Of a DNA stretch of 64,000 nucleotides, positions 4,904 to 59,385 are shown piece by piece (within the stretch, counting starts at the first letter, position 1; each line of letters opens with the position of its first letter). This DNA is from an uncultured Candidatus Saccharibacteria bacterium (GTDB lineage Bacteria > Patescibacteriota > WWE3 > UBA101185 > UBA10185): contig CAYLVW010000001.1 of the NCBI GenBank assembly GCA_964387275.1, positions 291,508 through 355,507 of the forward strand, read 5' to 3'. The notes beneath the pieces were generated by a model that saw only the letters and a program-made list of their open reading frames with translations, was not told where the DNA came from and searched no databases. Position numbers and translations under genes: made by a program.

Positions 4904-7165
4904 ATGAAAAATAAAAACGGTTTCGTTGATCCGCATTTAATGCTTATAGTTCTTATAGTTATGGCAGTTGTTGGTGTCGGCACAGTTGCTTATAACAAAG
5001 TTAATCCAGCAAATTTTAGTTTTTTAGGGGCATCATCTGGAACGTTGACTTACTCTGCAACTAAAACCAATTCAATCGGTGAGGAAGATGGGAATGCTTT
5101 TAATGTTATTCCTGTAGGTTCTCAAGGGTGGCTTGGTAATGGGGGCGGTACAGGTTATTTAGGTATAAGGTTTACAGGCGATAAATTGCCAAGTGGTGCA
5201 AAGATTAAGAACGCTAAGGTTTCTTTTACTTCCCCTAGTGATCAATGGATCCAACTAGATCTTGATATTAGAGGAGACGACGTCACAACTTCTGACCCTT
5301 TTTCCGACTCAAGAAGACCCTCTCAAAGACTTATGACTGATGCAGTAACTAAAGTATCAGAGAATGTAAAGTGGTCTAAAGGGAAAACATACAGCTATGA
5401 TGTAACAGATATTGTTAAAGAAGTTTTTAGTCAAAATTCTGAAGTAAGTACTGTCTCATTAATTGCTAAAGGTACAGGCAGTAACTGGTCGAGAAAGCAA
5501 ATTTCAAACACAAAAAATTCACCTAAACTTACAATTACATATGAACTTCCCAGTATGCCTACTCCAAGTGTGACATCTACACCTACACCAGTTCCCACAG
5601 TGACACCTGATCCTGTGCCAAGCGTAACACCAACTCCAACACCCACACCAAGTGCAACACCTACCCCAACACCTACGCATTCGCCAAGCATAACACCAAC
5701 ACCCGTACCAACAGTAACTTCTACTCCAACTCCTTTACCTACTCAAATTGGAGGTGTGTTTAATCCTGCAGCTGCTATAGCAGCTACATCCTACGGTATC
5801 TGGGATCCAGCTAATCCTCTATATCAAGGATCAGGCGATAAGATATACCCAATTTGTAGCAAGATAGCTCACGACAGCTATTTTGTTGTAGGCCCAGATG
5901 GTAAGAAATACCCAACTTGGCACCCGCCTATTGTAACGGATCCAACTACTGGTAAGCTTTGTTCTTTTGGGCATGAACATGGAAGAGATCCTTCAAAGTC
6001 CCTACTTTGGCAACAAGTTAAAGAATATTTCTACTACGATGCTAATAACAACGGAAGAATGGATGCGAATGAGGAAGCAGTGGCTGGATTACCTTTTGGT
6101 TATACCAATGAGCAATTTTCTGCTTATCATTCATCAAATCATAGTACAACTATGAGACACGAAGATCATGTTGGTCATAAAGTAGATTTTGCTAACGGTG
6201 AGGGTGAGATCGCTACACACCAGGAAAACAGCAGTACAACTAATGGTGTAAGAGTGGGAAGACTTGGCAACGGAGTTATGTCTAAATATACCGGTGTTAG
6301 GTGTTACTACCTTGCAAAACCTCACCAAGGTGTAAGTTCTGCAGATGCATTTACAAATAACGTGCACGAAGTTTTCTATTTTGCTAACTGTTGGGCAGAC
6401 AATTCGTCGTATAACCAGAAAATAAGTGTAGCTGTAATGATGCCGTTTGGGAAACCAGGGGGGTTTAATAAGTTTATGCCTCTGTGCGGAATTGAGAGAC
6501 GAGAAGATCCACAAGATTTTGTAAATATTGGAACTAATGCAATGAATGCTAACTACTTATCTGGTCCTGGGAACAGGGAGATAGTAAGCAGAGACTGTGT
6601 AGAGAGAGGAATCCTAGTTCCACAAGGACAGTTCTCTGGTAACTTTTATGAAGCTTGGCCTGCTTCTCTTCAAATTACTCGTTCTAACGGAACAAGTATT
6701 GCGTCTGGTATAAACCTTTTGTTTGATGTAGAAGACGCAAATAGATACTATGATCCGTCTAAGCCAAATAACTTGGGATATACAATGGATTTATGTTATG
6801 AAGAAATATCTGGCGGTAGAAGAGTTAGAGGTGGTGCTTGCGAATGGGCAACTAATTATAATACAGGTCCCTCGGTGCCTACTTCACAAAGAATAGCTTG
6901 GAACAGTCCAAGGTCAGGGTTTAAAGGTATTCATAGAGGAATGTACTTCATGCCTGCTGTAATTTCTAATGCAGGTGGCCCTGAGTATTGGTACTCAGAT
7001 CCTTATGGAAGAAATGCATCTGCTACACCATTTCCAGGCTCCATCAAGCAACAGATTAGTTCCAAGAATCTAAACTACTCCACTTTGATTAACGATTCCA
7101 TTGACCCTAGAGTTAATGATAGGATTCATGACGATGGAAACGGTTCTGTCTATGCTCCAAACTAG
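4904..7165 (+). CDS. Large secreted/anchored protein: N-terminal TM, a ~150-aa beta module (shared with the C-terminus of the 36827-38605 protein), a Pro/Thr/Val/Ser linker, and a ~480-aa C-terminal domain of unknown function.
   Basis: TM at residues 12-30; PT-rich linker at about residues 205-265. The N-terminal module aligns to the C-terminal module of ORF 36827..38605 ([14 protein letters not shown] against GDQWIQVDFELYGE; [15 protein letters not shown] against ISKGTGSQFGKKSVS). Confidence 0.5.
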
Positions 7166-7184
7166 TATTTAGGAGTTTTTTGAA

Positions 7185-7222
7185 GAAGCCCGCATACTGA
7201 AAGCATGCGGGCTTCTTGTTTT
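7185..7222. terminator. Bidirectional intrinsic terminator: GAAGCCCGCAT - loop - ATGCGGGCTTC, followed by TTGTTTTC.
   Basis: Perfect 11-bp GC-rich stem between convergent genes. Confidence 0.6.
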
Positions 7223-7360
7223 CTACGTCAAGATCAGCTATATACAACTTAGTTAAATAAAAACTTTTCAATAAAAATAAAAGACCACTTTTGAAACGTG
7301 GCCTTTCATTCTAAATTAACAAAACCCCATAACGAAGTTTTTACTAATTTATAAGTTAAA

Positions 7361-7744
7361 TTATTGATTTTGAACTTCGACCTGGAAACCTCCGTAGGCC
7401 ATTTTCTTCATATCAAACGGCATTTCCATATTAACTTCACTATTTTCTTGTTTTGACATTTCTTCCATTACTTTTGCGTTAACCTCATCCCTGTGTTCTT
7501 TGGATTTAAATACTATAAAAGAAAACCAAACTGTTTCATCTTTACCGGCTCCGGCCATTTCTGGAAAAGCTCGTGTTTTTTCCGATCCCATTTCTTGTTG
7601 TTTGTAATCATCTCCACGACATTCGTAGTAATCCAATGCGCCGTGTTTCATCCATAGTTCTCTACCTCCTTCGGCCATTTTTATATATTCTTCAGTTTTG
7701 TCATTTGGTATAACTAAAACAAAACCATCTACATATTTTGACAT
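7361..7744 (-). CDS. DUF1428 (YbaA-like) family protein.
   Basis: MSKYVDGFVLVIPNDKTEEY...HGALDYYECRGDD matches the conserved DUF1428 N-terminus (VDGFVLPVPKDK..HGALEYVEC). Confidence 0.6.
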   Translation of the reverse strand: MSKYVDGFVLVIPNDKTEEYIKMAEGGRELWMKHGALDYYECRGDDYKQQEMGSEKTRAFPEMAGAGKDETVWFSFIVFKSKEHRDEVNAKVMEEMSKQENSEVNMEMPFDMKKMAYGGFQVEVQNQ

Positions 7745-7887
7745 TAAATTTCTCCTAAATTTATACTGTATTTATTTTACTAAAGATATGTTTAGTAAGG
7801 AATACAGCATTTATTGTAGGTACAATTAAAAGTCTATCCACAAAGTTTCAAAATTTCTTTAAATAAGCTTTCCTATTTTGTGTTAGA

Positions 7888-8592
7888 ATGAGCTTCATGA
7901 TTTCAGAAGTAACACATCAATCAATAAGCTATATAAATAGTCTATCTAGTAGTATTCCACTGCCGGTTTTTGCGTTTTTAGGATCAATTATTGAGGAAAT
8001 AATTGCGCCAATTCCGTCACCATTGATAATGACCTTAGCGGGTACCATGGCTGCCTCTTTAGGTAAAACCTGGCCTTACTTAGTGCTACTGTCTCTTACT
8101 GGAGCTGTAGGTAAAACTATAGCAAGTTACTTCATCTATCTTGTAGCTGATAAATTTGAAGACGTTGTTCTAGTAAAATTTGGCAAATTTATTGGATTAA
8201 CCCATGCTCAGGTAGAAGGAATAGGGCAGCATCTAAACAAAGGGATAAGAGATGATATAGTCTTAACACTGCTAAGGGCGCTACCAATAATACCGTCCGC
8301 TCCTATTTCAGCTATTTGTGGTCTTATAAAACTAAACTTAAGAACATACTTAACCTCAACACTTATAGGTACTTTCATTAGAAATTTTGTATATCTAATA
8401 GCAGGTTATACAGGGTTAAACGCAGCTGAAGAATTTATTGTTAGTATGGAGAGTCTGGAAGTTGTTGTTTATCTATTCGTTGCAATAATAACAATCGCTT
8501 CAATTTCTTATTTTTATTACCAAAAGCATAAAGATGCTATCCTACACAAGTTTTTTAATAACAATCAATCAGATAGTAAAACTAACTTGTAG
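7888..8592 (+). CDS. DedA/VTT-family membrane protein.
   Basis: About 6 TM helices. The FxxxxxEExxxPxPS and G..G motifs in the first re-entrant segment are typical of DedA. Confidence 0.5.
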   Translation: MSFMISEVTHQSISYINSLSSSIPLPVFAFLGSIIEEIIAPIPSPLIMTLAGTMAASLGKTWPYLVLLSLTGAVGKTIASYFIYLVADKFEDVVLVKFGKFIGLTHAQVEGIGQHLNKGIRDDIVLTLLRALPIIPSAPISAICGLIKLNLRTYLTSTLIGTFIRNFVYLIAGYTGLNAAEEFIVSMESLEVVVYLFVAIITIASISYFYYQKHKDAILHKFFNNNQSDSKTNL

Positions 8593-21806: not shown

Positions 21807-23444
21807 ATGCCAAATAATCTGGAAGCTATTGCTAGTTTAACAGATGAAGACAATGGTAATAGTTCAGATATTACTGAGCCTGTTGACATAGATACAATTA
21901 GAGGCTTGGGTTCTGTGGAGAAGGAAGGATTTGTACCTTTTGATGCAGAAACAGTTAATGTAAAACTTGGTAACCTGCTAAAAGTGTCCACTTCTAAGGA
22001 ATCCAATGCTAAAGAGGCACTTGCTGAATATAAAGAGTTAGAGCCCCATATTAGATATCATTTAACGGAGATAAGTGATATAGATAGTACAATCTCTATC
22101 ATTTCGGGACTAAAAAACTTCTTAGAGTTTGGTATAGGTACCAATGAATTAGTTGCAACTCAGATTGAACGATTGCTTGATAGTTGTAGTTCAGTCCTAC
22201 TTAAAGATTTGGAAGCTAGGGGTCCCCAATATACTTACTTATTGTTTAGTACCTATGGACTTGTATCCCCACACAGAATACCAAACCAAGCTTTTAAAGA
22301 GTTCGAAAATATTGAAGATAGACTTAAAGGCATTATCCTTAGTGAGCCTCTACTTGTAGATTCTATAGGGCGTAGAGTTACTGCTACAAGAAGCTTTGAA
22401 GATTCTACCACCTATGAGATGCATTCTACCTTTCCAAATCTCTACCAGTTAAGGTACTGGTTTGCAAATCCTGAGGAGCTTAGTACTTCCCTAGCACCTA
22501 CATTTAAAAGAATGCATGATTTATTTCCCGGTTTTGATAGTTTAATTACTGGATATAGCCTCGCATTAGATGCAAAGTACTATAAATTAATTTATGGTGA
22601 TACATTGTGTGGGTTGGTAGGTGAAGAAAATGTAGACCGGTTACTCTTAAGTTGGGTTGGGAATATAGGCAAGAAAACCACAAAAGCAAGTTTCTATGGT
22701 CCAGAAAATGTTTCAAAAAACATAAAGCTAATGCAGGATCTAGAAGAAACTGCACAAGGAGCTGTTAAGGTTCTCATGGAACCTCCATTTAATATTCGTA
22801 ATTTTGGTAGATATGATGGACATGATTTATACATGCAATATCGTCAAAGGGATTTACCTGGTTACTATATACTTGTGGTAACACCAGATGATGACCATAA
22901 CGGTGTGTTTTACGGGAAAAATAATTTTAGTGAGCTGGCAGATTCTGCTAAAACCGCCAATTTATATGTAAGATTTGCAGAAGTGGGTAAAGCTACCGGT
23001 AGGAGAAATAGTTTGTCCAGGCTGCACAGTAATTTACATGCAAAGTATGGCGAGGCCAAAATTGTGTGTGGTGTACTATCCGGACATGGGGATGTTGACA
23101 TTCAAAAAATACAACTAGGTAATTCACATGTGTCCTCTGCTATTTTTGGCGAAGAAGATTATAAAATTTCAAAAAGACCACAATTGATAAGAAGTTGCTA
23201 TACACCTAATGCAGTTATTTTTGTGAATTCATGTGGTTTAGGGGCTGATAAAGATGACAGTTTTGCAAAATTTGTTTCTGGGGTAACAGGATTAAAAACA
23301 GTGGGATCAAGTGATTCTATAATACCCCTACACCTGATGGTAGAGAGAACGCCTGAAGGAGGTTTAAAGTATAGGTATTCTTACAATATAGATTACGATA
23401 AACCTGCTGGAGTTAACGTATATTTAAATGCTGAAAAGCTATAA
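21807..23444 (+). CDS. Hypothetical cytoplasmic protein with a C-terminal caspase/metacaspase-like (clan CD, CHAT-like) domain.
   Basis: A beta-strand followed by His (KIVCGVLSGHGD), then 49 aa later a beta-strand followed by Cys (AVIFVNSCGLG). This reproduces the caspase His-Cys dyad spacing and the metacaspase YSGHG/DSCHSG-like motifs. Confidence 0.4.
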   Translation: MPNNLEAIASLTDEDNGNSSDITEPVDIDTIRGLGSVEKEGFVPFDAETVNVKLGNLLKVSTSKESNAKEALAEYKELEPHIRYHLTEISDIDSTISIISGLKNFLEFGIGTNELVATQIERLLDSCSSVLLKDLEARGPQYTYLLFSTYGLVSPHRIPNQAFKEFENIEDRLKGIILSEPLLVDSIGRRVTATRSFEDSTTYEMHSTFPNLYQLRYWFANPEELSTSLAPTFKRMHDLFPGFDSLITGYSLALDAKYYKLIYGDTLCGLVGEENVDRLLLSWVGNIGKKTTKASFYGPENVSKNIKLMQDLEETAQGAVKVLMEPPFNIRNFGRYDGHDLYMQYRQRDLPGYYILVVTPDDDHNGVFYGKNNFSELADSAKTANLYVRFAEVGKATGRRNSLSRLHSNLHAKYGEAKIVCGVLSGHGDVDIQKIQLGNSHVSSAIFGEEDYKISKRPQLIRSCYTPNAVIFVNSCGLGADKDDSFAKFVSGVTGLKTVGSSDSIIPLHLMVERTPEGGLKYRYSYNIDYDKPAGVNVYLNAEKL

Positions 23445-31925: not shown

Positions 31926-32000
31926 TGGTGAGGACGGTGGGGATCGAACCCACGACAAACGGCTTAAAAGGCCGCTGCTCTACCACTGAGCTACGTCCCC
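31926..32000 (-). tRNA. tRNA-Lys (anticodon TTT)
   Basis: The reverse complement is GGGGACG-TA-GCTCAGTGGTAGAGC-A-GCGGC-CTTTTAA-GCCGT..GGTTCGATCCC..CGTCCTC-A-CCA. Confidence 0.85.
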
Positions 32001-32214: not shown

Positions 32215-32316
32215 ATGACAAATTGTCCAAATTGCTATTACCAAATACTAGATATTAAAGGATCCACCAAGTCAGTGTGCAAAAACTGCGGCTTTAAGGA
32301 CGGGTGTTGTTTTTAA
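32215..32316 (+). CDS. Unannotated 33-aa Cys-rich small ORF (MTNCPNCYYQILDIKGSTKSVCKNCGFKDGCCF): CxxC-x14-CxxC zinc-ribbon-like peptide ending in CCF.
   Basis: ATG at 32215 preceded by TATATAAT; stop at 32314-32316. It falls below the ORF-track size cutoff. Confidence 0.3.
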   Translation: MTNCPNCYYQILDIKGSTKSVCKNCGFKDGCCF

Positions 32317-32363: not shown

Positions 32364-35300
32364 GTGACCATTACTTTGATGCAAAATCACAAATTTTTTA
32401 CATCAATATTTCTAAGTTTATTTATTTTAGGTTTTATCATAAATCAGGATGTAGTTTACGCAGCAGCTACCCCAACCGTGACTACACTTACACCTGTTTC
32501 TACAAGTGTAGGTAAATTTAAAAAATTCGAGGTAGATTTTCAGATCTCGCAGTCTTATCCTGCAGATTCTCTTCTGCCCTACTACTATTATGATGCTAAT
32601 GATAATCCTACTGCTGATCCAGGCAGAACTTCTCCATATGGAATAGATGGTATATCTATTGATGCACACTTTGTTGCACCATCGGGTAAAGAGCAAGTTG
32701 TACCAGCTTTCTATTTCCAAGAGTATGTAAGAGGAGGTTCTCAAACATCTGCAACAATGACAGCAACCGGTAAGGTTGGCTGGAAAATCAGATATGCCCC
32801 ATCAGAGGTAGGAGCCTTTTCATATTATGTAACCGTAACTGATAAGAACGGTACTACAAGATATCCGACAAGCGGAAACTTGTCTTTCACTTCAACACAA
32901 AGTGACTCTAAAGGGTTTATACGTGTTGCAAGTAAAGATAGTAGGTTTTTACAATTTGATGATGGAAGCTCGTATGTTCCAATATCTGCTGGTAAGCAGT
33001 GGTGGCTTTGCTGCGGAGGCAGATCTTATGATATTGAGAATAGCTACAACAGATTTGGTGCAAATGGTGTTAACTTAACCAGACTTTGGGATCAAAATGA
33101 TGGTTACAACTTAACTGTCGAGGGACATTATGATGGCTATAATTGGCCTGAAGATTATAACCCAGACAATGGTGTAAATGATCTGACGACGATCAGAAAG
33201 GGAACTCAGTTTAACCAAAGAGGCAATGCTGAGGAAGACTTAATTATCCAAGCAGCTGAAAGAAATGGTGTATACATTGAGCTTTCGTCACATGAAGATC
33301 CTTATTGGATTTGGGACGGCTCCGTACACAACGAATCCTGGAATACTTCTGTACAAAAATTTGATAGCCTAAGACATATCGGCTATTGGAAGAGAAACTT
33401 CAGATATAGGGTAGCTAGATGGGGTTACTCAACTTCAATACTATCTTGGGAAACATGGAACGAACATGGCCATGTATTACCAGGCACTGAAGTATACAAC
33501 TTTTATCAACAGCTAGGAGCTTATCAAAAAGTGGCAGATGTATATGGTCACCTTAGAACTACATCTCAAGGCAGTCAAGCCTTTAGTCCTGCTTTTTGGA
33601 CTTCTGGTGCATTTGATTTAGCTAACCTTCACTTCTACATAATGGGTTTTACACCCGAAGCTTTTAGAACAGATGAAGCAAAGTTCGTATATAGTGTAGC
33701 TTGGTGCTTGAGAGATATTGGAAGAGGTACTTCAAGTCCTTATTGTACCGATCTTGGCTTAGGAGATGGCACTACTTGGTCTGCTTTTAAAGGCCATATG
33801 CCTTGGATATGGGGTGAATTTGACGCAGGTACAAATAATTGGAATGAATCTAACCCCCTTACTAAAACAGGAGAGGGAAGACTAAGACTCTTGCATAACT
33901 CTTTATGGAGTGGCTTATTCTCACCACTAGGAACTTCTCCAATAGAATGGTATTTTGATGGAGAAGATGCAGCAACTACAACAGCTAAGCTAGCTCAAAG
34001 GCTGGGCGCCAGCAAGTTCTTCAAGGATGTAGATTATGCAAATGGCAATCTTACTTTTCTACCAGGCCAGTACGACACACCTACAGGCTATACAGGTGAA
34101 ACTATCACTTCCTCAGATGCTAGAATTAAAGTTTATGGAATGAGAAGAGGAGATAAAACTGCTGCATACTTGTGGATTCAAAATAGAGGCTATACTTGGG
34201 TTAACTCACCTAATACGGCTCAACAAGTAACAGGAGTTGCAAAAATCGCAGGTCTTGGTACTGGGTCTTATAGAGTTGAAATGTGGAATACAAATGATGG
34301 TTCTATTACTAGCACTAATGTTGTTACACCATCCAACGGTGAAATAACAGTAAATGTGAATAATTTAACAACAGATTTTGCTGTTAAGATAATCTCAACA
34401 ACTGCAACACCATCCACGACGCCTACTCCAACAGCAACCCCAACACCTAGCCCTACTGCAACACCAACCCCAACACCCACGCCTTCTAATCTAGGTAATG
34501 GAGATGTTAATGGTGATGGTGTGGTAAATGCAGGAGACTTAGTATCACTGGTAACAAATTGGGCAGCAACTGTAACTAGTTCACTAGATCAATACAAAGA
34601 CGGAGTGGTAAATAGTTTAGATTTTGCAGTGACATCAAATACAATACCTGTAACAACCCCGACCCCAAGCCCAACTGTAACACCAACTCCAACACCTACA
34701 CCAACTCCAACACCTACACCGACTGCTACTGCAACCCCTGTTCCAACTCCGACCCCTACACCAACAGCTACACCAGCACCAGGAACTCCCATATCTTGGT
34801 CACAGTTTGGTGGTAATGCTCAACGCACAAACCATACAGAGCAAACTGTCGCTTCGCCTTGGAGATTTAAATGGGTTTGGAATGGTCCTGATGCCAGTGG
34901 TAAAACACAAGCAAACCATCTAAACGACGTACCAGATATGGTACAACCAATAACTGGAGGTAATAGAGTTTACATGGTTGCAAACAACACCCTATATGCT
35001 CTTGATAAAAATAGCTCCAATAAAGCATCTGGTACAGTACTGTGGTCAAAGGGAAATATAGGTACTTTAAATGCAACACCAGCGTATGAAGCCGAAGTTA
35101 TCTACCTAACAAGCTCCACAGGTGTGTATAAACTTAACGCGTCTGACGGCTCCACTTTAGCTTCTTATACAACTCAGGGTTCCACTGTAGCTCCTTTACT
35201 TGCAAATAATAGTTTGTATGTTGCTTTAGCAAACGGAAACTTAGTTTCCTTAAATAAAGCCAACATGACTGCAACTTGGACTTATACAGGGGGCTCAAAC

Positions 35301-36836
35301 AGTGCTACTCCTCCGTCCTTCTCGAGTAGTAAATCAACAATTGTTTATGTAACCCAAGATCTTAATGTCCACGCAGTTAATACAAATGGTACTCAAAAGT
35401 GGAAAGTAAAACCAACTCCAAGAACACCTGGTAATCCTGCCTCTTCTCCAGCAAACAACTTAGCTGAAGCGCTAAATGGATGGCCGGTTATCGCTGAGGC
35501 TCATGGATTAGTGTTTGTAAGGTATCGACTAGACTGGCAAACCCTTTGGGAACATAACCCTTACCCAACAACCGTTACAGGAGATACCGTGGTAAATCAA
35601 ACTATGTATGCTCTTAATTTGGATAACGGTACTATTGCCTTTAAACCGGCTGTAGGTAATGCAGCTCAAGGTGATGGTGGCGTTCTCGATATGGGACCTC
35701 AGCCCATAATACGGGTTGTTGATGGAAAAGAAGTTGCTTACGTAATTTGGAGAAATGGACAAGTCTGTGGAGGCTGTGCTTCTGGAGGTAACTGTACAAA
35801 TAATGGTGTGACTCAATGGTGTGATGGTAGAGAAGATGCAACGTTCGGAGAAATGGTCTTAGACAACAATACAGTTAGTGGATATCAAGCAGGTCAAGTA
35901 AGATTTGTAGGCTCAGGCAGATACTTAGCTCAAGAGGGAACACACCAGTTCGATATACAAACAGATGAAGCACTGAACATCACTATGTCCGGCTCTACTT
36001 TATTTCATAACCACTGGTTAGTGTCTCAGACAATAAATATTGTAGACAGAAGTAGTAGCCTTGGTTCAAGCTTCCAAAACCCAATAAGGGCTGTTGCCGG
36101 TCAAAACACTATTTGGAGGCAAGTCTATTGTGCGCCAACAAATACACAGTGTAACCCGCAAATCTTCCCTGGAGGTTCAGGAACTACTTATGGATCATCC
36201 GACTGCCAATTCAATGCTAATACAAGAGCTTGTACCAGCAACCTTTATTCTTATGGAGATAACAGATCCTATGGACCTGGTTTTTACGAATATCATAACG
36301 ATAACAACCATGGAACAATGGCATTTTCTGTTGTGAGTGATGGCTTAGTCCTCGTAAAAACAATAGATGGTGCTGTAATGGCTTACGAAAACGGAAGCAT
36401 AGCTGATACTGAAAACGAGCTACTTGCGTTAGGCAACGTAGACTCCAACGTTCTAGGTGCAGAAACAGTAGCAGAAACTCCTAAAATATCTTGGGAACAA
36501 GCACTTGATCATGTGGGAAAAAATGTAATTCTTAATGGTAAGGTTACAGTAGTTGAAGACCACATGCCAAAAGCATACTACATAGGATTTACAGAAAATC
36601 CTAAGGAAAAGTTTTTGGTAAGAATTTTTGCGGAAAATGCTTCTAAATTTACTTACGACATTAGTAGTCTCGTAGGTAAGGAAGTAAGTATAAAAGGATA
36701 TGTCACAACTTACTGGCCTGATAATGAGATTGCGGAGATCGTCGTAACAGACCCAACACAAATTGAAGTAGCTAAAGCTTCAAAAAATGATAATTGGTTA
36801 TTTAGCTTTTTGAAAGGTATCTTCTCATGGAAATAA
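32364..36836 (+). CDS. Giant secreted multidomain protein. Domains in order: N-terminal TM/signal; Ig-like domain; GH5-like (clan GH-A) TIM-barrel glycoside hydrolase domain; PT linker; type-I dockerin module; PT linker; PQQ-like beta-propeller; C-terminal domain.
   Basis: WETWNEHG (GH-A acid/base NE motif); two dockerin Ca-binding repeats GDVNGDGVVNAGDLVSL and DQYKDGVVNSLDFAV; repeated xYALDxxxGxxxW propeller blades. Confidence 0.55.
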   Translation: MTITLMQNHKFFTSIFLSLFILGFIINQDVVYAAATPTVTTLTPVSTSVGKFKKFEVDFQISQSYPADSLLPYYYYDANDNPTADPGRTSPYGIDGISIDAHFVAPSGKEQVVPAFYFQEYVRGGSQTSATMTATGKVGWKIRYAPSEVGAFSYYVTVTDKNGTTRYPTSGNLSFTSTQSDSKGFIRVASKDSRFLQFDDGSSYVPISAGKQWWLCCGGRSYDIENSYNRFGANGVNLTRLWDQNDGYNLTVEGHYDGYNWPEDYNPDNGVNDLTTIRKGTQFNQRGNAEEDLIIQAAERNGVYIELSSHEDPYWIWDGSVHNESWNTSVQKFDSLRHIGYWKRNFRYRVARWGYSTSILSWETWNEHGHVLPGTEVYNFYQQLGAYQKVADVYGHLRTTSQGSQAFSPAFWTSGAFDLANLHFYIMGFTPEAFRTDEAKFVYSVAWCLRDIGRGTSSPYCTDLGLGDGTTWSAFKGHMPWIWGEFDAGTNNWNESNPLTKTGEGRLRLLHNSLWSGLFSPLGTSPIEWYFDGEDAATTTAKLAQRLGASKFFKDVDYANGNLTFLPGQYDTPTGYTGETITSSDARIKVYGMRRGDKTAAYLWIQNRGYTWVNSPNTAQQVTGVAKIAGLGTGSYRVEMWNTNDGSITSTNVVTPSNGEITVNVNNLTTDFAVKIISTTATPSTTPTPTATPTPSPTATPTPTPTPSNLGNGDVNGDGVVNAGDLVSLVTNWAATVTSSLDQYKDGVVNSLDFAVTSNTIPVTTPTPSPTVTPTPTPTPTPTPTPTATATPVPTPTPTPTATPAPGTPISWSQFGGNAQRTNHTEQTVASPWRFKWVWNGPDASGKTQANHLNDVPDMVQPITGGNRVYMVANNTLYALDKNSSNKASGTVLWSKGNIGTLNATPAYEAEVIYLTSSTGVYKLNASDGSTLASYTTQGSTVAPLLANNSLYVALANGNLVSLNKANMTATWTYTGGSNSATPPSFSSSKSTIVYVTQDLNVHAVNTNGTQKWKVKPTPRTPGNPASSPANNLAEALNGWPVIAEAHGLVFVRYRLDWQTLWEHNPYPTTVTGDTVVNQTMYALNLDNGTIAFKPAVGNAAQGDGGVLDMGPQPIIRVVDGKEVAYVIWRNGQVCGGCASGGNCTNNGVTQWCDGREDATFGEMVLDNNTVSGYQAGQVRFVGSGRYLAQEGTHQFDIQTDEALNITMSGSTLFHNHWLVSQTINIVDRSSSLGSSFQNPIRAVAGQNTIWRQVYCAPTNTQCNPQIFPGGSGTTYGSSDCQFNANTRACTSNLYSYGDNRSYGPGFYEYHNDNNHGTMAFSVVSDGLVLVKTIDGAVMAYENGSIADTENELLALGNVDSNVLGAETVAETPKISWEQALDHVGKNVILNGKVTVVEDHMPKAYYIGFTENPKEKFLVRIFAENASKFTYDISSLVGKEVSIKGYVTTYWPDNEIAEIVVTDPTQIEVAKASKNDNWLFSFLKGIFSWK

Positions 36837-38605
36837 GAAACTTAATAAATCTTATAACTGGTGATAAGAAGTACCTGATGATAGCAACTGCTTTAACGCT
36901 ACTTACCACAGGCATTGGTCTTAAGGTAGCAGTAGATAGGGGATTTATTTTTGGGGCCGCTTCTGGTGGAAGACTGGCCCTTCCCCAAACAGCTTCATCC
37001 ACTGTAAATACTGATTTTTCTGTACCACTTACTATCAATCCTAATAGCCAAAATGTCTTAGGCTTTGATGTGAGGGTTAAAATACCTAATACTTTAGTAC
37101 AGTTGGTACAGATAGTGCCTTCAAATAGCATCCAAACAACTCTTACCTATGTACCTACGTTGAGTGAGGCTATCGCAAAAGCCAATGAGACGGGAGAACT
37201 TAGTTTCAGTGTTCTAACCTATGATAGTAACAAGGCAGCTGTTACAAACCCAATTACTGGGACAACAGACACCACTGTAGCTACATTAACATTTAAACCT
37301 CTAACCGTGGGCAATGGAACTGTAGAGTGGCTTTTTACTGATGGCAGTACCACTGATTCAAACATTGCAGTAAAAGGTAGCAATAACGATGCGCTATCAA
37401 CAGTTACCAATATGGCAGTCTCTATAGGGGAGACACCAACCCCAACCCTAACTCCAACTCAAACCTCAACACCTACTGCAACTACCACACCAACCCCAAC
37501 TCCTAGCACAACACCTTCTGGTACAACCACCCCGACGACAACACCAACCCCAACAGTCACAGGTACTCCAACCCCGGTCCCAACTCCGGATAGCCCAACT
37601 TCCACAGACTCCCTACAAAACTCCGGTTTTGAGACTGGCAAAACTACGCCGTGGAAAACCAGTAGTGCTACTGTAGTTAGTGGGGCAAAAAGCGGGTCAT
37701 ACGCTTTAAGACTCAACTCAAGCAGTGCCTACAATTCTCAAAACATCTCAGGTTTATTAAAGGCTGGGACGGAATACACACTATCTGCTTGGATTAAGGT
37801 CACTAAGAAAGGTACTAGCTGGGGAGTTCCAGGACTTAGAGTTTCGAAATTTGATGATCTGGGAACATCTGATTATGGTGAAGCTAAAGTAGCAAATGAT
37901 ACAAAACCAGGGTGGACCCAAGTCAAAATCAAGAAAACATTCACAGCAAAGGAATTGCAATCTAATGTGTTTTTCGGCGTAAAGAATTTTGGATTTAATG
38001 GTACAAGCTTAGTGGATGATTTCACTATAACAGCCGGTGCCTCATCACCAACACCCACGCCTTCCCCCACTCCAACCCCTACTCCAACCCCTACTCCTAT
38101 ACCTACTGCACAAACAGTGACATACACTGGTAGTATATTTAACCAAGATGGAGGTAGCCAATCAAACGGAGGAAACTGGATTGGAACTGGTCAAGATACT
38201 ACATCAAGTTTTGCTGCCTTTAGCTTTAGTGGAGTTAATATTCCACAAAACGCAACTATACAGTCAGCTAAAGTGGAACTTCAGTCTAGTGGAGATCAAT
38301 GGATACAAGTAGATTTTGAGCTTTATGGTGAAAATACAGCAAATAGTAGTAGTTTCTCAAGTAATTCACTGCCTTCAAGTAGAACGCTTACATCAGATAA
38401 AATAGCAAGTTCTACTAACGAGAGGTGGGTTAATGGAAATTGGTATGGCTATGATGAAGTAACACAGATACTAAAAACTCTCACGGCAAAATCAGACTGG
38501 AAATCAGGTAACACGCTTTCGCTTATTTCTAAGGGAACAGGTAGTCAGTTTGGTAAGAAAAGTGTCTCTTCTGCTAGACTTACTGTTACTTTTGTAGCTA
38601 AGTAG
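36827..38605 (+). CDS. Secreted scaffold-like protein: N-terminal TM, cohesin-like domain, PT linker, CBM4/9-like carbohydrate-binding module, PT linker, and a C-terminal ~150-aa module homologous to the N-terminal module of ORF 4904-7165. Its start overlaps the dockerin gene by 10 bp.
   Basis: GFDVRVKIPNTLVQLVQIVP against the cohesin signature DFVYSYDPNVLEIIEIEP; ATLTFKPLTVGNGTVEW against ATIVAKVKSGAPNGLSV. CBM4/9 pattern: LQNSGFETGKTTPW...GSYALRL...YTLSAWIKV. Confidence 0.5.
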   Translation: MEIRNLINLITGDKKYLMIATALTLLTTGIGLKVAVDRGFIFGAASGGRLALPQTASSTVNTDFSVPLTINPNSQNVLGFDVRVKIPNTLVQLVQIVPSNSIQTTLTYVPTLSEAIAKANETGELSFSVLTYDSNKAAVTNPITGTTDTTVATLTFKPLTVGNGTVEWLFTDGSTTDSNIAVKGSNNDALSTVTNMAVSIGETPTPTLTPTQTSTPTATTTPTPTPSTTPSGTTTPTTTPTPTVTGTPTPVPTPDSPTSTDSLQNSGFETGKTTPWKTSSATVVSGAKSGSYALRLNSSSAYNSQNISGLLKAGTEYTLSAWIKVTKKGTSWGVPGLRVSKFDDLGTSDYGEAKVANDTKPGWTQVKIKKTFTAKELQSNVFFGVKNFGFNGTSLVDDFTITAGASSPTPTPSPTPTPTPTPTPIPTAQTVTYTGSIFNQDGGSQSNGGNWIGTGQDTTSSFAAFSFSGVNIPQNATIQSAKVELQSSGDQWIQVDFELYGENTANSSSFSSNSLPSSRTLTSDKIASSTNERWVNGNWYGYDEVTQILKTLTAKSDWKSGNTLSLISKGTGSQFGKKSVSSARLTVTFVAK

Positions 38606-38630
38606 TATTTTGTTAGTGATGTTTGTTTTG

Positions 38631-38657
38631 AGGGCGGGGCCAAAGGCCCCGCCCTCT
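38631..38657 (+). terminator. GC-rich palindromic hairpin GAGGGCGGGGCC-AAA-GGCCCCGCCCTC followed by TTTAT; first member of an AGGGCGG...CCGCCCT hairpin family.
   Basis: Perfect 12-bp stem in AT-rich DNA just after the scaffold gene. Confidence 0.55.
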
Positions 38658-38777: not shown

Positions 38778-38802
38778 AAGGGCGGCGCTTTGCGCCGCCC
38801 TT
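38778..38802. repeat. Second GC-rich palindrome AAGGGCGGCGC-TTT-GCGCCGCCCTT, preceded by two AGGAGG boxes with no downstream ORF.
   Basis: Perfect 11-bp stem. It shares the AAGGGCGG / CCGCCCTT arm ends with the hairpins at 38631 and 53741. Confidence 0.45.
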
Positions 38803-38828: not shown

Positions 38829-39203
38829 CTATTTACCTAAAGGTAAACTCTCGCAAGCAACGCCATCATTATCACCATCAAGGTTATTAGTATCCCCAGA
38901 AACCCCACCAGCTTTATCAAAAAAACCCTGGGCTAAAGTTTGAGTTTGAAAATCACTACAATTGTACTCATCTGTATACTTACCCCCTGAAGTAACAACA
39001 TTACCATCAGCATCTCTCATTACTTTAGATTCAGAAAGACTAGAACCTGAAATTAATTTCCCAAGATCAAAATCATTATTAGAAGCCTCTAACCCAAATG
39101 CTCCTAAAAGTAGGACCAAAGCACCAATAAGAATAGGTTTTGCAATTTTCTTAGAGGACTCACTGGTATTTGCTAGCTTGTCTATTTTAGGTATATTTAC
39201 CAT
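38829..39203 (-). CDS. Secreted Excalibur calcium-binding domain protein.
   Basis: N-terminal TM/signal; C-terminal [13 protein letters not shown]...[13 protein letters not shown] is the Excalibur consensus (CxDF..Q..AQ...DxDxDGxxCE). Confidence 0.65.
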
Positions 39204-53781: not shown

Positions 53782-56700
53782 CTATTTTTTTAACGCATTA
53801 ACATTCAGATAATGGAAATTATCCAATACAGTATCCGTTTTAGGTAGAATCCCAGTCACAATTACATTTATTCCGAAGAAGTTCTCGATGCGATCACCTT
53901 CTTTACTAAATAGCTTTTCTTTAATCATCATATCTGCTTCGGTATTACCGATGTACACTGGTTGATACACTTTACCCCCAATTGTAACGGTGTTAAATGC
54001 ATTCTCAGGTATAAACTGCTTTATTTTTTCAGGTATATTACCTTCAACTAAGTAAAATAACTTAGCGGTACCATCCTCAGCTCGCGCTGAGGCAACAGAG
54101 CCTACAGATATAATGTTTTTATATGTATTTGCGTTTACAATATGCATTTTATCCAGTATGGTTCCTGTAGGTGCTAACACTCCTGAAATCTTCATCTTAT
54201 TAATTCCAAAGAAGTCAGCTAAAGTATCTCCAGGTTTACTGAAAAGATTCTCATTTTTCATCATCATTGCTTCGTCGTAACCCACAATCATAGAATTGTC
54301 TTCTAAATTATATGTACCCTCTGAAATTTTAAGATCTTTAATTTTTCCAATGTCTATTGTTGAAAATACTTTTGGGTCTCCTTCAGCAAAATTCACCTTC
54401 ATATTGCCAGACGCTAATCCTAGGTTAATGTTTTTTACAACTTCATTTGACACAACAGTTTTTGTCATTTCACTTTCGGCAATAGCCATAGTAGAACTAA
54501 ACCTAGCAAATTCAAAAAACAAGAACGAAAAAAGTACAATCATAATTATGGGAGCTGATATTGAAATCCAATTTCTTTTTCCAGGCTTGTAACCTCTTAG
54601 AGTTAATGAATTTGAGACAACCGAGATAGAACTTAGTGCCATAGCAAGCCCTGCGAGCTCTGGTTTTAGAACTAAGCCCAAACCTACAAAGACGCGTGCT
54701 GCGATGGGAATACCAATTACATTGTAGAACAAGGCAAAGAACATGTTCTGTTTAATCTTATTTACAGTAGCTTTTGAAAGATCGATTGCATTAACTACAT
54801 CTCTTAGGTCGTTTCTTATGATTACAATACCACCAGCTTCCATAGCGACGTCAGTTCCAGAACCCATGGCAATACCTAAGTTTGCCTGTGCGAGGGCTGG
54901 GGCATCATTTATACCGTCTCCAACCATTGCTACCCGTTTACCAGAATCCTGTAATTTCTTAACTTCGTTAACTTTGTCTTCGGGTAAGACTTCCGCTAAA
55001 ATATTTGTTATTCCAACCTGTTGAGCTATTGCTTTCGCTGTGCGTTCGTTATCTCCTGTAATCATATAAACCTCTATCCCAAGTTTTCTTAACCTGTCTA
55101 CCGCCTCCTTAGAGGTTTCTTTGACGGTGTCTGCAACAGCAACAGTACCTAAAACTGACTCTTTTGTAGCCAGAATCATTGCAGTTTTTCCCTGCTCTTC
55201 TAGCTTAGTGAGCTTTCTATCAAACTTCTCAATTGAAAGATTTAATACATCTTTGATATGTTTTCTGTTACCGAAATAGTAAGTAATATCACCAATTGAA
55301 CCCTCGACACCATGTCCTGGGATTGCTTTAAATGATGCCACCTCACTCAACGCCATTTGTTCTTCTTGTGCATACGTATAGATGGCCTCTGCCAACGGAT
55401 GTTCTGATTGTTTCTCAAGACTTGCTGCAACTTGAAGAACTTCATCTTCATCTAACAAGCCAAAACTTAAGGTATCTGTTACTTCTGGTTTGCCTTTGGT
55501 AATTGTTCCAGTCTTATCAAATACAATTGCATTAATTTTTACTGCAGCCTCTAATGGTTCTCCACCTTTAACAAGGATTCCGTTTTCTGCACCTTTACCA
55601 GTTCCAACCATAATAGATGTTGGCGTAGCCAAACCTAGCGCACAGGGGCAAGCTATAACTATTACTGATGTAAAGGCCATTAATGCAAAGGATAGGGTTG
55701 ACCCTAATAAAAAGTACCAAACACCAAATGTAATTAGAGCCAATACTAATACTACGGGAACAAATACCGCTGAAATTTTATCAGCTACAGCTTGAATAGG
55801 AGCTTTTGATCCTTGAGCTGTCTCAACTAATCTAATAATTTGAGATAGTGTTGTCTCGGAGCCTACTCTCGTGGCTTTAAATTCAAAACTTCCTGTTTTA
55901 TTTATTGTTCCACCTACAACCGTATCACCTTCGTGTTTCTCTACAGGTAAACTTTCACCTGTAATCATAGATTCATCTACGGCCGAAGACCCTTTTATAA
56001 TCTCCCCATCAACAGGAACTTTTTCACCAGGTCTAACAACAACTACATCTCCGTTAACAACCTGCTCAATGGGAATATCTACTGTATTTCCGTTTCTTAC
56101 AATGCGTGCTGTTTTAGCTTGTAATCCCATTAATTTTTTTATTGCATCGGAAGTTCTGCCCTTAGCTTTTGCCTCAAGCCATTTACCTAAGATTACAAAA
56201 GTTATCAAAAAAGCGGCAGTTTCAAAGTAGAGTTCAGGAATTTTGGCTCCACCTATACCAATTATAGATTTTGTGGCTAGGTAATAAGCAATAAAGTTAA
56301 TAACGCTGTAAAAGTAAGCTACAGAAGTACCAATTGCAATTAAGCTGTCCATATTAAATGTTCTCATCCTTAGAGCAGAAAACATTCCTTTATAAAAACC
56401 TTTTCCAATAATGAACTGTACGGGCGTAGTAAGTATAAGAGAAATTATTCCGACGTAAGGAAGTAATGCGACACGACCTGGAAATGTTGCCACAAAGTCA
56501 AATATCATAAAGTAAATCATTGGTACACTAAGAACCAAGCTTATAAGGAATTGCTTAAACATCCAATTTATATGACCCTGTTGCTTATTTTTGTCACTGT
56601 CAGATGGATTCTGTTTTGTAATAGAGGCTTTATATCCAGCTTTCTCTACAGCTTTAATCAATGTTTCTTTTTCGGTGACTGCTTCATCCACTAAAATACT

Positions 56701-57300
56701 TGCTTTTTCAGCTGCAAAATTAACATTTGCTTCTTTAACGCCACTCACCTTCCGTATAGATTTTTCAATGATTGCGGCACAAGAGGAACAGTGCATTCCT
56801 TCGATATCTAAGGAAACTCTATTTATACCCTTTGGGGTTACAGGTAAAGCTACTGAATTATCACCTACTTTTGTTGCAACCGTTTGTTGGATTGCGTTTG
56901 TATTCAGTTGGGCAGGTTCTGTATTTTTAGGACCCTCTATATGATTATTAAAGACTCCTGAAAGATTTAATGACTTCAAATCTTTTTCAGATCCTTCTAA
57001 TTCTATCCTTTGTTCTAAAATTATTTTTATCGAGCTAGTATCAGAGTTTTTATCCTCCTGAGTCTCACTAGATGTTGCTTTATATCCTGCTTTTTCTACC
57101 GCACCTAAAAGAGCGTTAATATTAGTTTTATCTGTATCTACAATTACAGTACCTTCTCCTGATTTTGCATCAACTTTTATATCACTTACTCCCTGTATTT
57201 CTGATAATTCATCTTTTATAAGGGTCTCACATGAAGAACAGTGCATCCCTTCAATTTTGAGTTTGATTAACTTCTGCATTTTAAACCTCCACAAAACCAA
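53782..57300 (-). CDS. copA: Copper-translocating P1B-type ATPase with two N-terminal HMA domains and an unusual ~330-aa C-terminal extension containing a tandem ~60-aa repeat.
   Basis: GMHCSSC twice, [16 protein letters not shown]. The C-terminal repeats are ...[39 protein letters not shown]... and ...[38 protein letters not shown]... Confidence 0.9.
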
Positions 57301-57496
57301 TAATTTTATACTCTGTATCTTTCAAGGCATTTTCGACCTGTATTTGGTTTATTGGGTTGTTAGACTGTATTAATGCAGTTTGTGCATCTAACTCTACAGT
57401 GATTAAAGTTACTCCTTCTAATTTTCCGAGTCTTTTTTGTATGATTTTCTTACACGCATCGCAATGTAGACCTTGTAATTGGATTTTATAGTTCAT
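57281..57496 (-). CDS. copZ: HMA-domain copper chaperone (CopZ-like).
   Basis: [11 protein letters not shown] ferredoxin-like HMA fold, 71 aa. Confidence 0.7.
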
Positions 57497-57507
57497 ATTT
57501 TCTCCTC

Positions 57508-59385
57508 TTAATTAACCGTTATTGTTCCTCTTGGAACTCCCATCGCACAGGTTATTTTATATACACCTGTTTTTGTAGGGGTGAAATTAAATACTGTTTT
57601 TTGCCCTTTCTGGAAGGGGTAATAATCTTGAGCAAGCCCCGGTAAGGCTACACTTCCCATACAACCAGCTCCGTCGTCGTTAGCTTCAATCTCAAACTGA
57701 ACAGGCATATTGGCTTTTACAGTAAAGTTGTTTGGTTGGAGGTCTCTATCCACCGAATAGGTAGCCTGAATTAACTGAACTTGCGTATTTGTACCATTTG
57801 TAGATGGTACTGTGTCTGCATTAACATTTGCTGATGGTTGCATATTCTTTAAACCTCCGCCACAGCCACAACCCCCACCAGATGCTCCACAACTTCCTCC
57901 TCTTTGTGGAACTTGGTTTTGAGCAGAAGCATATAAATTACCATTGGAATTTGTATTAGAACCTACTCCAGAGTTATCGACAACATTAAAAGATCCTGTG
58001 TACATTCCCATGCTACAAGAAAACCTTATGGTTCCGTTTTCATTAGGCGTGAATTCAATTATGTTTTCTCCTTCATTCAACATTTTCCTGATTCCAAGTT
58101 GTGAAGAAAATATACTAGCCGCACAAGTATTAGAGTCAGTTGATGTAATGAGCCATTTTACGGGAACTCCTTTTTTAATCGTGAATGACCTAGGTGAGTA
58201 CCCATTACTGTTTTGTGTCATTTTGACTAGTTGAACTCCATTTTGCATGGTGACATTAGGATCTGTTGCATTTAAATTAGAGTTAACAGTAGTATTTGCA
58301 AGTGCTCCAAGGGAAGGAAGTACAAACCCTGTAAGATTCAAACCATTGGAAATATTAAAAATAGAAAGGGCAATAACCATAAGTCCGACAAACTTGAAAA
58401 AAGGTTTGGCAAAAACTCCTTTGACTAAAGATGTTAATCCACCAACCCCTAATAGTCCTGGTGCAGTACCTAAAGCGAAAATCCCCATAGTGAGTGCACC
58501 TGTTAACGCACTTCCGCTTGAAATTGCGTATAACTGCATTGCTTGTGTAAATCCGCATGGCAAAAAGAATGTCATACCGCCAAGTAAAAAAGAACCTTTA
58601 TTTGAATATTCATCTTCTTTTTGAGTGTCTATGCCAATAAGCTTATATAGACTTTTGGGCAACGTGAACTTAATTCTTTCAAGTCTGGGAAATATTGCTA
58701 TTGTTTGCAGACCCAGTAGAAGCATTACAATTCCAACTAATATTGTTAAGAATCCAATTGATGATGGACCTAGTTGTAGAAAAGAACCAAAATACCCTAT
58801 TACTCCACCAAATAAAATAAAGAAAAATATCCTACCTAAGTTGAAAATAACGTGAGGTGTAAATTTTTGTAGTGCTGTTGTATTAGGGTGTTTCTCAGAA
58901 AATCTTGCTGAAACTCCTAAGACCAATCCACCTACTAAAGCCATGCATGTTGATAAACCTGCGGTTAGCCCCACTAGAAACACTACAGGAAGGCTGGATA
59001 AATTATTCGAGGAGTTAAAAGCAATATTAAAGAAACCTAAACCTTTCGCAACAAAATAGACTGCGATTAATGCGATGGTAGCTTTTACTAATTCTTTATA
59101 GTCTTTTGGATTTCTTGAAATCCAACTATTACTATCTTTACCCAAACTATAACCGCAACCACACACGGCATCTTCTATATGAGAGTCCAATACCTCACCA
59201 TCATAGAATATCTCAGCTATTCCTTTTTTTTCGCTTACATTAACTTTATGAATACCGTCAATTTTTAGAAGTTCTTCTTCTATTAAAATTTCACAGGAAC
59301 GACAGTGCATCCCTTTAATAGGTACGATTTTTTTTCTTCGCTCACCGGGGTGGGCAAAGTTATTTGTTTGGATTTGTTTGGCCAT
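57508..59385 (-). CDS. Fusion protein: HMA domain, DsbD_2/TauE-like permease, Cys/Gly-rich linker, and two C-terminal cupredoxin-like domains.
   Basis: GMHCRSCE; TM region with LSTCMALVGG and FFLPCGFTQ; GGSCGASGGGCGCGGG; C-terminal domains with TCAASIF..FSCSMGMYTGSF and YKITCAMGVPRGTITV. Confidence 0.45.
   Translation of the reverse strand: MAKQIQTNNFAHPGERRKKIVPIKGMHCRSCEILIEEELLKIDGIHKVNVSEKKGIAEIFYDGEVLDSHIEDAVCGCGYSLGKDSNSWISRNPKDYKELVKATIALIAVYFVAKGLGFFNIAFNSSNNLSSLPVVFLVGLTAGLSTCMALVGGLVLGVSARFSEKHPNTTALQKFTPHVIFNLGRIFFFILFGGVIGYFGSFLQLGPSSIGFLTILVGIVMLLLGLQTIAIFPRLERIKFTLPKSLYKLIGIDTQKEDEYSNKGSFLLGGMTFFLPCGFTQAMQLYAISSGSALTGALTMGIFALGTAPGLLGVGGLTSLVKGVFAKPFFKFVGLMVIALSIFNISNGLNLTGFVLPSLGALANTTVNSNLNATDPNVTMQNGVQLVKMTQNSNGYSPRSFTIKKGVPVKWLITSTDSNTCAASIFSSQLGIRKMLNEGENIIEFTPNENGTIRFSCSMGMYTGSFNVVDNSGVGSNTNSNGNLYASAQNQVPQRGGSCGASGGGCGCGGGLKNMQPSANVNADTVPSTNGTNTQVQLIQATYSVDRDLQPNNFTVKANMPVQFEIEANDDGAGCMGSVALPGLAQDYYPFQKGQKTVFNFTPTKTGVYKITCAMGVPRGTITVN

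Follow-up and report, generated by a model that had tools for sequence, protein, structure and literature searches.

The question raised by the locus described here is whether two adjacent genes of an uncultured Candidatus Saccharibacteria bacterium encode proteins that dock onto one another through a dockerin and a cohesin. The genes lie on the forward strand of a 64,000-nucleotide stretch of contig CAYLVW010000001.1, which was analysed as a whole and is referred to below as the window. Open reading frame (ORF) A (32364-36836) starts with GTG, has an in-frame ATG at codon 6 and encodes a predicted multimodular secreted enzyme of 1490 amino acids (aa); ORF B (36827-38605) encodes a single-cohesin protein of 592 aa with a putative anchoring or targeting role. 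An earlier note, written from the letters alone, had described this gene pair as a dockerin-bearing enzyme followed by a cohesin scaffold with a carbohydrate-binding module (CBM). Both ORFs were found at the coordinates that it gave, with an overlap of exactly 10 bp between the stop codon of A and the start codon of B (36827-36836, ATGGAAATAA), and every module that it had named was recovered: a dockerin, a GH5-like catalytic domain of glycoside hydrolase clan GH-A, a pyrroloquinoline quinone (PQQ)-type propeller, a cohesin and a CBM_4_9 module. The reading that we favour, and hold to be probable from the sequences, is that A and B bind one-to-one through the dockerin and the cohesin, forming a minimal surface complex in Patescibacteria, the candidate phyla radiation (CPR).

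The dockerin of A (aa 709-760, 34488-34643, plus strand) is flanked by Pro/Thr linkers (aa 678-708 and 761-808) and consists of two F-hand repeats, GDVNGDGVVNAGDLVSL at aa 713-729 and DQYKDGVVNSLDFAV at aa 742-756, with Ca-binding loops at aa 714-725 and 742-753. Pfam Dockerin_1 (PF00404), the profile against which a check had been proposed, matched aa 713-759 with 30.2 bits, above the gathering cutoff of 22.9 (E = 5e-7). The isolated dockerin segment scored 37.0 bits (E = 4e-9), and A-orthologues scored 25-33 bits. All of these orthologues keep one dockerin variant, GDGDVNGDG...DQYRDG..N.LDFAVV, in which the second loop reads DQY[KRP]D.

Identification of the cohesin of B (aa 45-205, 36959-37441, plus strand) was less direct. 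The Pfam Cohesin profile (PF00963) matched neither B nor its isolated aa 45-202 at E <= 10, and the test on which the earlier note had let the cohesin stand or fall therefore came out negative. An exact-sequence look-up of B gave no identical entry, and word-indexed searches with the cohesin and with the C-terminal domain of B returned no relatives, nor did a metagenome scan with B as a single protein. An exhaustive phmmer search of 1.84 billion representatives with the B cohesin, on the other hand, recovered 132 relatives, 11 of them below 1e-10, including a 592-aa orthologue of B whose cohesin domain is 90% identical. When the 133 aligned family members were scanned with Pfam, 84 matched PF00963 (best E = 1.3e-20), 32 matched Dockerin_1 and seven matched CBM_4_9. 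A 40-sequence profile of the cohesin domain (A2) was compared with the PDB, and nearly all matches were solved cohesins (3l8q, 1.3e-7; 2y3n_A, 8.8e-6; 1tyj, 2.1e-5), with SdbA, ScaC and CaCohA2 cohesins among the further ones. The AlphaFold2 (AF2) model of the domain (pLDDT 96.5, pTM 0.90), which has one helix at domain residues 68-78, gave 28 Foldseek matches at E <= 1e-3, and all 28 were cohesins (best 6kgc_A, 1.3e-9, TM 0.67/0.74). Because homologues match PF00963, the profile matches solved cohesins and all significant fold matches are cohesins, aa 45-205 of B are established as a cohesin on sequence-family and predicted-fold grounds; direct Pfam and NCBIfam scans taken alone would have led us to discard, wrongly, both the cohesin and the GH5-like reading of A. 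For the same reason a generic Ig-like or phage-sheath-like sandwich, suggested by a match to Phage_sheath_domII at E = 0.06, was rejected for this domain. Signals as to cohesin type diverge: the sequence profile favours ScaB and SdbA, which we take to be type II, whereas the fold comparison points to type I cohesins (CaCohA2, OlpC and C. cellulolyticum). Of the 132 relatives, 119 have their cohesin beginning no later than residue 90 and 109 have a hydrophobic segment ahead of it, so that an N-terminal helix followed by a cohesin is the standard layout of the family. Many relatives (P0127, P0128, P0131 and P0132 among them) have an N-terminal cohesin and a C-terminal dockerin; such polypeptides could allow head-to-tail chains or adaptor functions.

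The pairing of the two genes is conserved. An enzyme gene with dockerin and propeller, followed by a cohesin gene with a CBM, was found in the strain-level relative L001 and in five other genomes (L003/L027, L006/L010, L008, L009 and L012); in these five the A-orthologues are 51-59% identical to A and the paired genes abut or overlap. In L032 the order is reversed, the cohesin/CBM gene lying immediately upstream of the enzyme gene. Outside this clade, in Chloroflexota, Planctomycetota and other groups, proteins with a homologous catalytic module carry a C-terminal dockerin or none and have no adjacent cohesin. The closest genomes with the pair are Patescibacteria metagenome-assembled genomes (MAGs), including Candidatus Saccharibacteria and Candidatus Woesebacteria. 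The cohesin family as a whole comprises 132 representative clusters, many of them with dockerins, and the suggestion that such a pair would be unusual in a CPR-like organism was therefore overstated. Automatically generated MAG records assign the CPR-type enzyme/cohesin contigs L012, L024 and L032 to Pseudomonadales or Gammaproteobacteria, probably through errors of binning or labelling.

In L030, a further Patescibacteria MAG (JAMCSY010000004.1, 2337-13399), the same modules are partitioned differently. A 1729-aa fusion protein joins an N-terminal helix, a cohesin (31% identical to that of B; PF00963 score 37.8 bits, cutoff 24.1), a jelly-roll of the B type (40% identical) and an A-type DUF5060 enzyme (43-46% identical). 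Two proteins consisting of a dockerin and a PQQ-type propeller are encoded directly upstream of it. In the second of these (5691-8180) the dockerin is 53% identical to that of A, the propeller 51% identical over 553 aa and the A-type C-terminal domain 41% identical. With this partition, nothing but a contact between cohesin and dockerin would bring enzyme and propeller back together in L030, and the rewiring argues, at the level of sequence, that the modules function as one assembly. The two L030 propeller proteins share an identical N-terminal region and look like recent paralogues. A different arrangement was observed in L037 (Candidatus Roizmanbacteria, CAWJTN010000001.1), where seven consecutive ORFs of 581-1060 aa on the minus strand (301-21731) each contain a dockerin-like Ca-loop detected by regular expression, mostly near the N-terminus; they adjoin a DUF5060 enzyme that bears a dockerin, and the neighbourhood showed no cohesin.

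Several observations weigh against docking of A onto B. The dockerin loops were compared with the 12-residue consensus D-x-[DN]-x-[DN]-G-x-x-[DN]-x-x-D, after which a helix is expected. Loop 1 (DVNGDGVVNAGD) conforms to it throughout, but in loop 2 (DQYKDGVVNSLD) the third Ca-ligand position is occupied by Tyr, a residue kept in the orthologues and replaced by Asn in L032; the earlier description of two canonical repeats was in this respect slightly overstated, and Ca binding at site 2 is uncertain. The cohesin of B is too divergent for detection by Pfam, and its binding face may consequently differ from those of characterised cohesins. Cohesin and dockerin occur in one chain in 32 of the 133 cohesin-family members, which implies a wider interaction network with possibly promiscuous partners. 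Finally, our view spans 64 kb of the genome, and further cohesins or dockerins may exist elsewhere. The degenerate second loop and the lack of a Pfam match to the cohesin of B would suit an arrangement without any complex, in which the dockerin-like segment is a Ca2+-stabilised spacer, the cohesin-fold domain of B is a stalk or a glycan-binding beta-sandwich, and A and B act independently on the same substrate; outside cellulosomes, many modules resembling dockerins or cohesins are not known to have a partner. We regard this as very improbable, since the dockerin, including its atypical second repeat, is strongly conserved in orthologues that are only 51-59% identical overall, the dockerins of L030 are N-terminal on stand-alone propeller proteins and cannot be interdomain spacers there, and the fold matches of the B domain are all to dockerin-binding cohesins.

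It is also conceivable, if rather improbable, that the modules are real but that A and B are not mutual partners, their adjacency reflecting only co-regulation of surface proteins; the cohesin of B would then recruit dockerin proteins encoded elsewhere, or the dockerin of A would dock onto another cohesin. The large size of the cohesin family and the network implied by its dockerin-bearing members fit this explanation, as do the two dockerin-propeller paralogues per one cohesin in L030, the seven L037 ORFs with no cohesin nearby and the restricted genomic view. Against it, the dockerin variant and an adjacent cohesin gene occur together in 7/7 clade loci and neither occurs alone; the stop codon of A and the start codon of B overlap; the window contains exactly one cohesin and one dockerin, those of B and A; and the L030 module swap retains the same set of modules. 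Given the overlap, the isolation of the two genes as a unit, the presence of a sole cohesin and a sole dockerin in 64 kb, the conservation of the pair in five or more further genomes and the redistribution of its modules in L030, the pairing of A and B is not accidental. Conservation and redistribution together are strong, if indirect, evidence for binding of A to B. One-to-one docking is considered probable because of the Rosetta-stone-type pattern in L030 together with the conserved gene overlap.

The enzyme that would be brought to B by this contact occupies the N-terminal half of A. Its N-terminal beta-domain (aa ~36-180, 32469-32903, plus strand) belongs to DUF5060 (PF16586), which matched aa 95-157 with 33.3 bits against a cutoff of 27.2, and could be aligned to PDB entry 9gmj. 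It is followed by the catalytic domain (aa ~181-560, 32904-34043) and by a C-terminal part of the enzyme unit (aa ~561-677, 34044-34394), which corresponds to the third aligned stretch (9gmj residues 383-562) and is assumed to be a beta-sandwich. As a single sequence, A matched 9gmj, annotated as a 'DUF5060 domain-containing protein', over aa 90-425 (E = 4.6e-23); a profile of 62 family members (alignment A3) matched it at 1e-83, in three stretches that together span residues 40-562 of the 568-residue chain. The next matches of this profile were the GH5 endo-beta-1,4-mannanases 3ziz (4.2e-8) and 1qno (1.1e-7), with 3wfl, 4awe and 3wh9 weaker.

The motif WETWNE, which had served as the mark of a GH5-like domain, is present at aa 362-367, and its NE aligns with FAWEL[AG]NEP of the mannanases, including the NE of 3ziz and 1qno. 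A second motif, WIWGEFD, which holds E485, aligns with LVGEFG of 9gmj. With residues numbered as alignment position plus 35, R240, N366, E367, H396 and H423 are invariant in the family, and Y425 and E485 nearly so. The sequence therefore carries the clan GH-A signature, namely an Asn-Glu acid/base pair, a nucleophilic Glu set within G-E-F/W, and the conserved residues Arg, His, His-x-Tyr and Trp. By comparison with these relatives, E367 (codon 33462-33464) is the probable acid/base and E485 (codon 33816-33818) the probable nucleophile; the 9gpc variant carries a Glu to Gln exchange at precisely the residue aligned with E367. The Pfam GH5 profile (PF00150) matched neither A nor its isolated catalytic region at E <= 10, and among the matches listed just 2 of 120 homologues have a precomputed PF00150 match. 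The label GH5-like is accordingly borne out at the remote clan level, through 9gmj and the mannanases, but not at the level of the family profile, and aa ~36-680 are best described as a predicted clan GH-A, GH5-like retaining glycosidase of a distinct DUF5060/9gmj family. Like A, 9gmj and 9gpc (568 aa) contain DUF5060 and the NE and GEF motifs, and homology extends across nearly the whole enzyme unit (A aa ~90-680); unlike A, 9gmj consists of the enzyme by itself and has no dockerin, propeller or linkers. Our literature search yielded nothing usable on 9gmj, including its activity, on 9gpc or on DUF5060 enzymes. The catalytic module of A is 58-61% similar to Chloroflexota homologues and 51-62% similar to CPR orthologues; these comparable values suggest that the enzyme module has moved laterally between Chloroflexota and the CPR.

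Downstream of the dockerin, A continues with a PQQ_2/BamB-type beta-propeller (aa ~809-1345, 34788-36398, plus strand), in agreement with the propeller assignment made earlier: Pfam PQQ_2 matched aa 875-1092 with 47.3 bits against a cutoff of 27.6. A role as a PQQ dehydrogenase was rejected, as the only matches were to BamB-type PQQ_2 and to designed or PQQ-repeat propellers, with nothing that indicates cofactor binding. On these matches we treat it as a putative binding or scaffold propeller. Eight Cys residues lie between aa 1135 and 1290 of the propeller region, consistent with an extracellular location of A. The conserved C-terminal domain (aa 1346-1490, 36399-36836), to which sequence assigns no function, is kept in L003, L008, L009 and L012 and absent in L006; its 145 aa gave no Pfam or PDB sequence match. 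A first impression of an OB-fold-like domain found no support in these searches and is not claimed. The domain accompanies the propeller, in the stand-alone protein of L030 as well, and its last residues form a short hydrophobic and aromatic tail (NWLFSFLKGIFSWK).

Each protein has one N-terminal hydrophobic segment (A aa 12-35, B aa 17-36), as expected from the proposal that both are anchored by N-terminal transmembrane helices, but that of A resembles a cleavable signal peptide. A signal peptide was placed at aa 1-33 (32364-32462, plus strand) from hydropathy, with a cleavage site at VYA/AA read from the sequence, and cleavage is the more likely fate of this segment than anchoring. The helix of B (36875-36934) may be a signal anchor, or a cleaved or uncleaved signal sequence.

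Beyond its cohesin, B carries two modules of putative glycan-binding type. A CBM_4_9-type module lies between Pro/Thr linkers at aa ~259-405 (37601-38041, plus strand); PF02018, named beforehand for checking the CBM4/9-like module, matched aa 262-375 with 28.7 bits, above the gathering cutoff of 25.9, and the modules of orthologues scored 33.3 and 34.9 bits. The C-terminal domain (aa 429-592, 38111-38602) was modelled as a beta-jelly-roll (pLDDT 94.9) with a DNRLRE/CBM96-like, TGF-beta-prodomain-like fold, and was found again in 11 cohesin-family proteins. None of the 12 members gave a Pfam match, and the domain of B gave no PDB sequence match and no NCBIfam DNRLRE match; it shares the DNRLRE/CBM96-like fold but not membership by sequence profile. 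The closest folds are CBMs for anionic polysaccharides (chondroitin sulfate and alginate), and from the model the domain is probably a second glycan-binding module.

Taking the observed module identities, the conserved gene pairing and the L030 rewiring as its starting points, the model that we favour runs as follows. A would be exported by its Sec signal peptide as a retaining clan GH-A glycoside hydrolase of the DUF5060/9gmj family, with E367 acting as acid/base and E485 as nucleophile, and Pro/Thr linkers would tie this enzyme to the internal dockerin, the BamB/PQQ-type propeller and the C-terminal domain. The hydrophobic helix at the N-terminus of B would hold the protein at the membrane or close to it, and B would display one cohesin, followed by the two glycan-binding-type modules (CBM_4_9 and the DNRLRE/CBM96-like jelly-roll). 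The dockerin of A would plug, in a Ca2+-dependent manner, into the cohesin of B. Docking would tether enzyme and propeller to the cell surface beside the glycan-binding modules of B, and tethering may concentrate hydrolysis on bound polysaccharide. It is from sequence and predicted structure that we infer the physical binding, its Ca dependence, and the topology, hydrolytic activity and substrate of the complex.

The complex could serve in the degradation of nutrient polysaccharides, or in attack on or attachment to surface glycans of a host. In the latter case the assembly would be the same but its role different: a tool with which an episymbiont binds and cuts glycans of the host cell envelope for attachment or feeding, rather than an environmental, plant-type polysaccharide. 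Such a role receives encouragement from an essential envelope protein with a dockerin domain in a cultivated strain of Patescibacteria, mentioned in passing and speculated to target host glycans (PMC10633639). The fold of the C-terminal domain of B, nearest to CBMs for anionic polysaccharides, points in the same direction, as does the small-genome context with no sugar-uptake or sugar-catabolism genes adjoining the pair in the window. The nearest characterised sequence relatives of the catalytic domain, however, are beta-mannanases, and the enzyme family is common to free-living Chloroflexota and Planctomycetota; overall we consider a role on host glycans somewhat unlikely. Unlikely to a slightly greater degree, in our judgement, is the broader proposal that the pair is one instance of a Patescibacteria-wide, re-wirable cohesin-dockerin toolkit for gripping and cutting host cell-envelope glycans by ultra-small episymbionts, in which enzyme, propeller and cohesin with CBMs may be combined either covalently or by docking. 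If true, this would constitute a second major biological use of the cohesin-dockerin principle, independent of plant-biomass degradation.

The closest precedent is the ClcC/ClcD pair of Cellulosilyticum lentocellum (2026), in which adjacent genes encode the single cohesin (CBM3-X2-cohesin) and the single dockerin (GH5_1-dockerin) of the genome; formation of the heterodimer was shown experimentally and enhances cellulase activity (PMC13487519). ClcC/ClcD is a direct precedent for the concept proposed for A and B. Both pairs are encoded by adjacent, co-oriented genes with the only cohesin and the only dockerin seen (for A and B, in the 64-kb window); both combine a GH5-type enzyme bearing a dockerin with a non-catalytic, single-cohesin protein that carries CBMs and lacks surface-layer homology (SLH) domains; and both have asymmetric dockerin repeats, as would fit a single mode of binding. 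The host of ClcC/ClcD, in contrast, is a Firmicute, its enzyme is a GH5_1 cellulase rather than a member of the DUF5060/9gmj GH-A family, and its genes are ~40 bp apart rather than overlapping. The dockerin of A, unlike that of ClcD, is internal and followed by a propeller; the cohesin of B is N-terminal, right after the hydrophobic helix, whereas ClcC has the order CBM3-X2-cohesin; and the CBM3 of ClcC is replaced in B by CBM_4_9 and DNRLRE-like modules. The ClcC/ClcD heterodimer is known from experiment, A and B from sequence and predicted structure.

Single surface cohesins that tether one dockerin-bearing enzyme are also found in OlpA/OlpC of Clostridium thermocellum and ScaE/ScaC of R. 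flavefaciens, and the B cohesin finds some of its best fold matches in the cohesins of OlpC (4dh2) and ScaC (5lxv). These proteins are anchored by SLH domains or sortase and form part of large multi-scaffoldin cellulosomes, whereas B has only its N-terminal hydrophobic helix, together with CBM-type modules. Description of A and B as a minimal cellulosome-like pair holds in that there is one cohesin-dockerin pair, but they do not form a cellulosome in the strict sense, which calls for a scaffoldin whose several cohesins integrate a number of dockerin-bearing cellulases, as B has one cohesin and the enzyme is no recognised cellulase. Cohesin-dockerin pairs are used outside cellulose degradation in the R. 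bromii amylosome (PMC4611034). As is proposed for A and B, the amylosome, the GH84/GH33 toxin complexes of C. perfringens and the Archaeoglobus fulgidus proteins extend the assembly of glycoside hydrolases or surface proteins by cohesin and dockerin beyond cellulose, and the C. perfringens cohesins 2jh2, 2w1n, 2vo8 and 2o4e are significant fold matches of the B cohesin; they differ from A and B in lineage, in enzymes (GH13, GH84 and GH33) and in dockerin subtype.

A and B therefore represent an established kind of assembly with no new mechanism, one that is not rare within its lineage, and they leave the understanding of how cohesin-dockerin systems work unchanged. What sets them apart from the precedents is the lineage, the enzyme family, the position of the dockerin inside the chain with a propeller after it, the N-terminal placement of the cohesin beside a membrane helix, the types of CBM and the rewiring from lineage to lineage; no description of a cohesin-dockerin pair in the CPR was found in the literature searched. 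If A and B bind as proposed, the cohesin-dockerin principle would be present in its simplest, one-to-one form in a radiation of organisms with tiny genomes, which are believed to depend on other cells by way of their surface proteins. With two small modules, the pair is tractable for the study of divergent cohesin-dockerin specificity and could become an orthogonal pair for designer assemblies. Comparison of the window with L030 and L032 provides a natural experiment in module rewiring, and the locus links a GH-A family of solved structure to a defined surface context.

The surroundings of the genes are best explained by a two-gene operon that stands as an isolated unit. A GAAAGG Shine-Dalgarno-like motif lies 8-13 nt 5' of the ATG of B. 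The upstream neighbour of A is a divergent tRNA-Lys gene (31926-32000, opposite strand), and the downstream neighbour of B is a convergent gene for an Excalibur-domain protein (38829-39203, minus strand). A perfect 12-bp GC-rich hairpin (38630-38656, plus strand), terminator-like with a weak T tract, begins 25 nt past the stop codon of B and is kept in the strain-level relative L001 with one loop substitution. A scan for consensus promoters and terminators found no excess over chance and missed this hairpin. A second perfect GC-rich hairpin (38778-38802, AAGGGCGGCGC-TTT-GCGCCGCCCTT) lies in the convergent intergenic region, just beyond the end of the Excalibur-domain gene; the two make a pair of terminator-like elements. 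The 363-bp intergenic region 5' of A holds a 33-codon ORF (32215-32316, plus strand; MTNCPNCYYQILDIKGSTKSVCKNCGFKDGCCF) that contains two CxxC pairs and is zinc-ribbon-like; no equivalent was seen 5' of the A-orthologues in L006, L008, L009, L012 and L032.

The window has a G+C content of ~36% and housekeeping genes typical of a reduced genome. G+C rises to 0.41-0.43 across 34000-38000, against ~0.36 in the flanks, at least partly because of the codons of the Pro/Thr linkers. Elsewhere in the window, two large ORFs (4904-7165, plus strand, 753 aa; 21807-23444, plus strand, 545 aa) have no Pfam match at E <= 1e-5, and a copper-handling cluster on the minus strand (53782-59385) encodes a P-type ATPase of 1172 aa that contains two HMA domains and a fusion protein of 625 aa (HMA-DsbD_2-cupredoxin), after which comes a histidine kinase.

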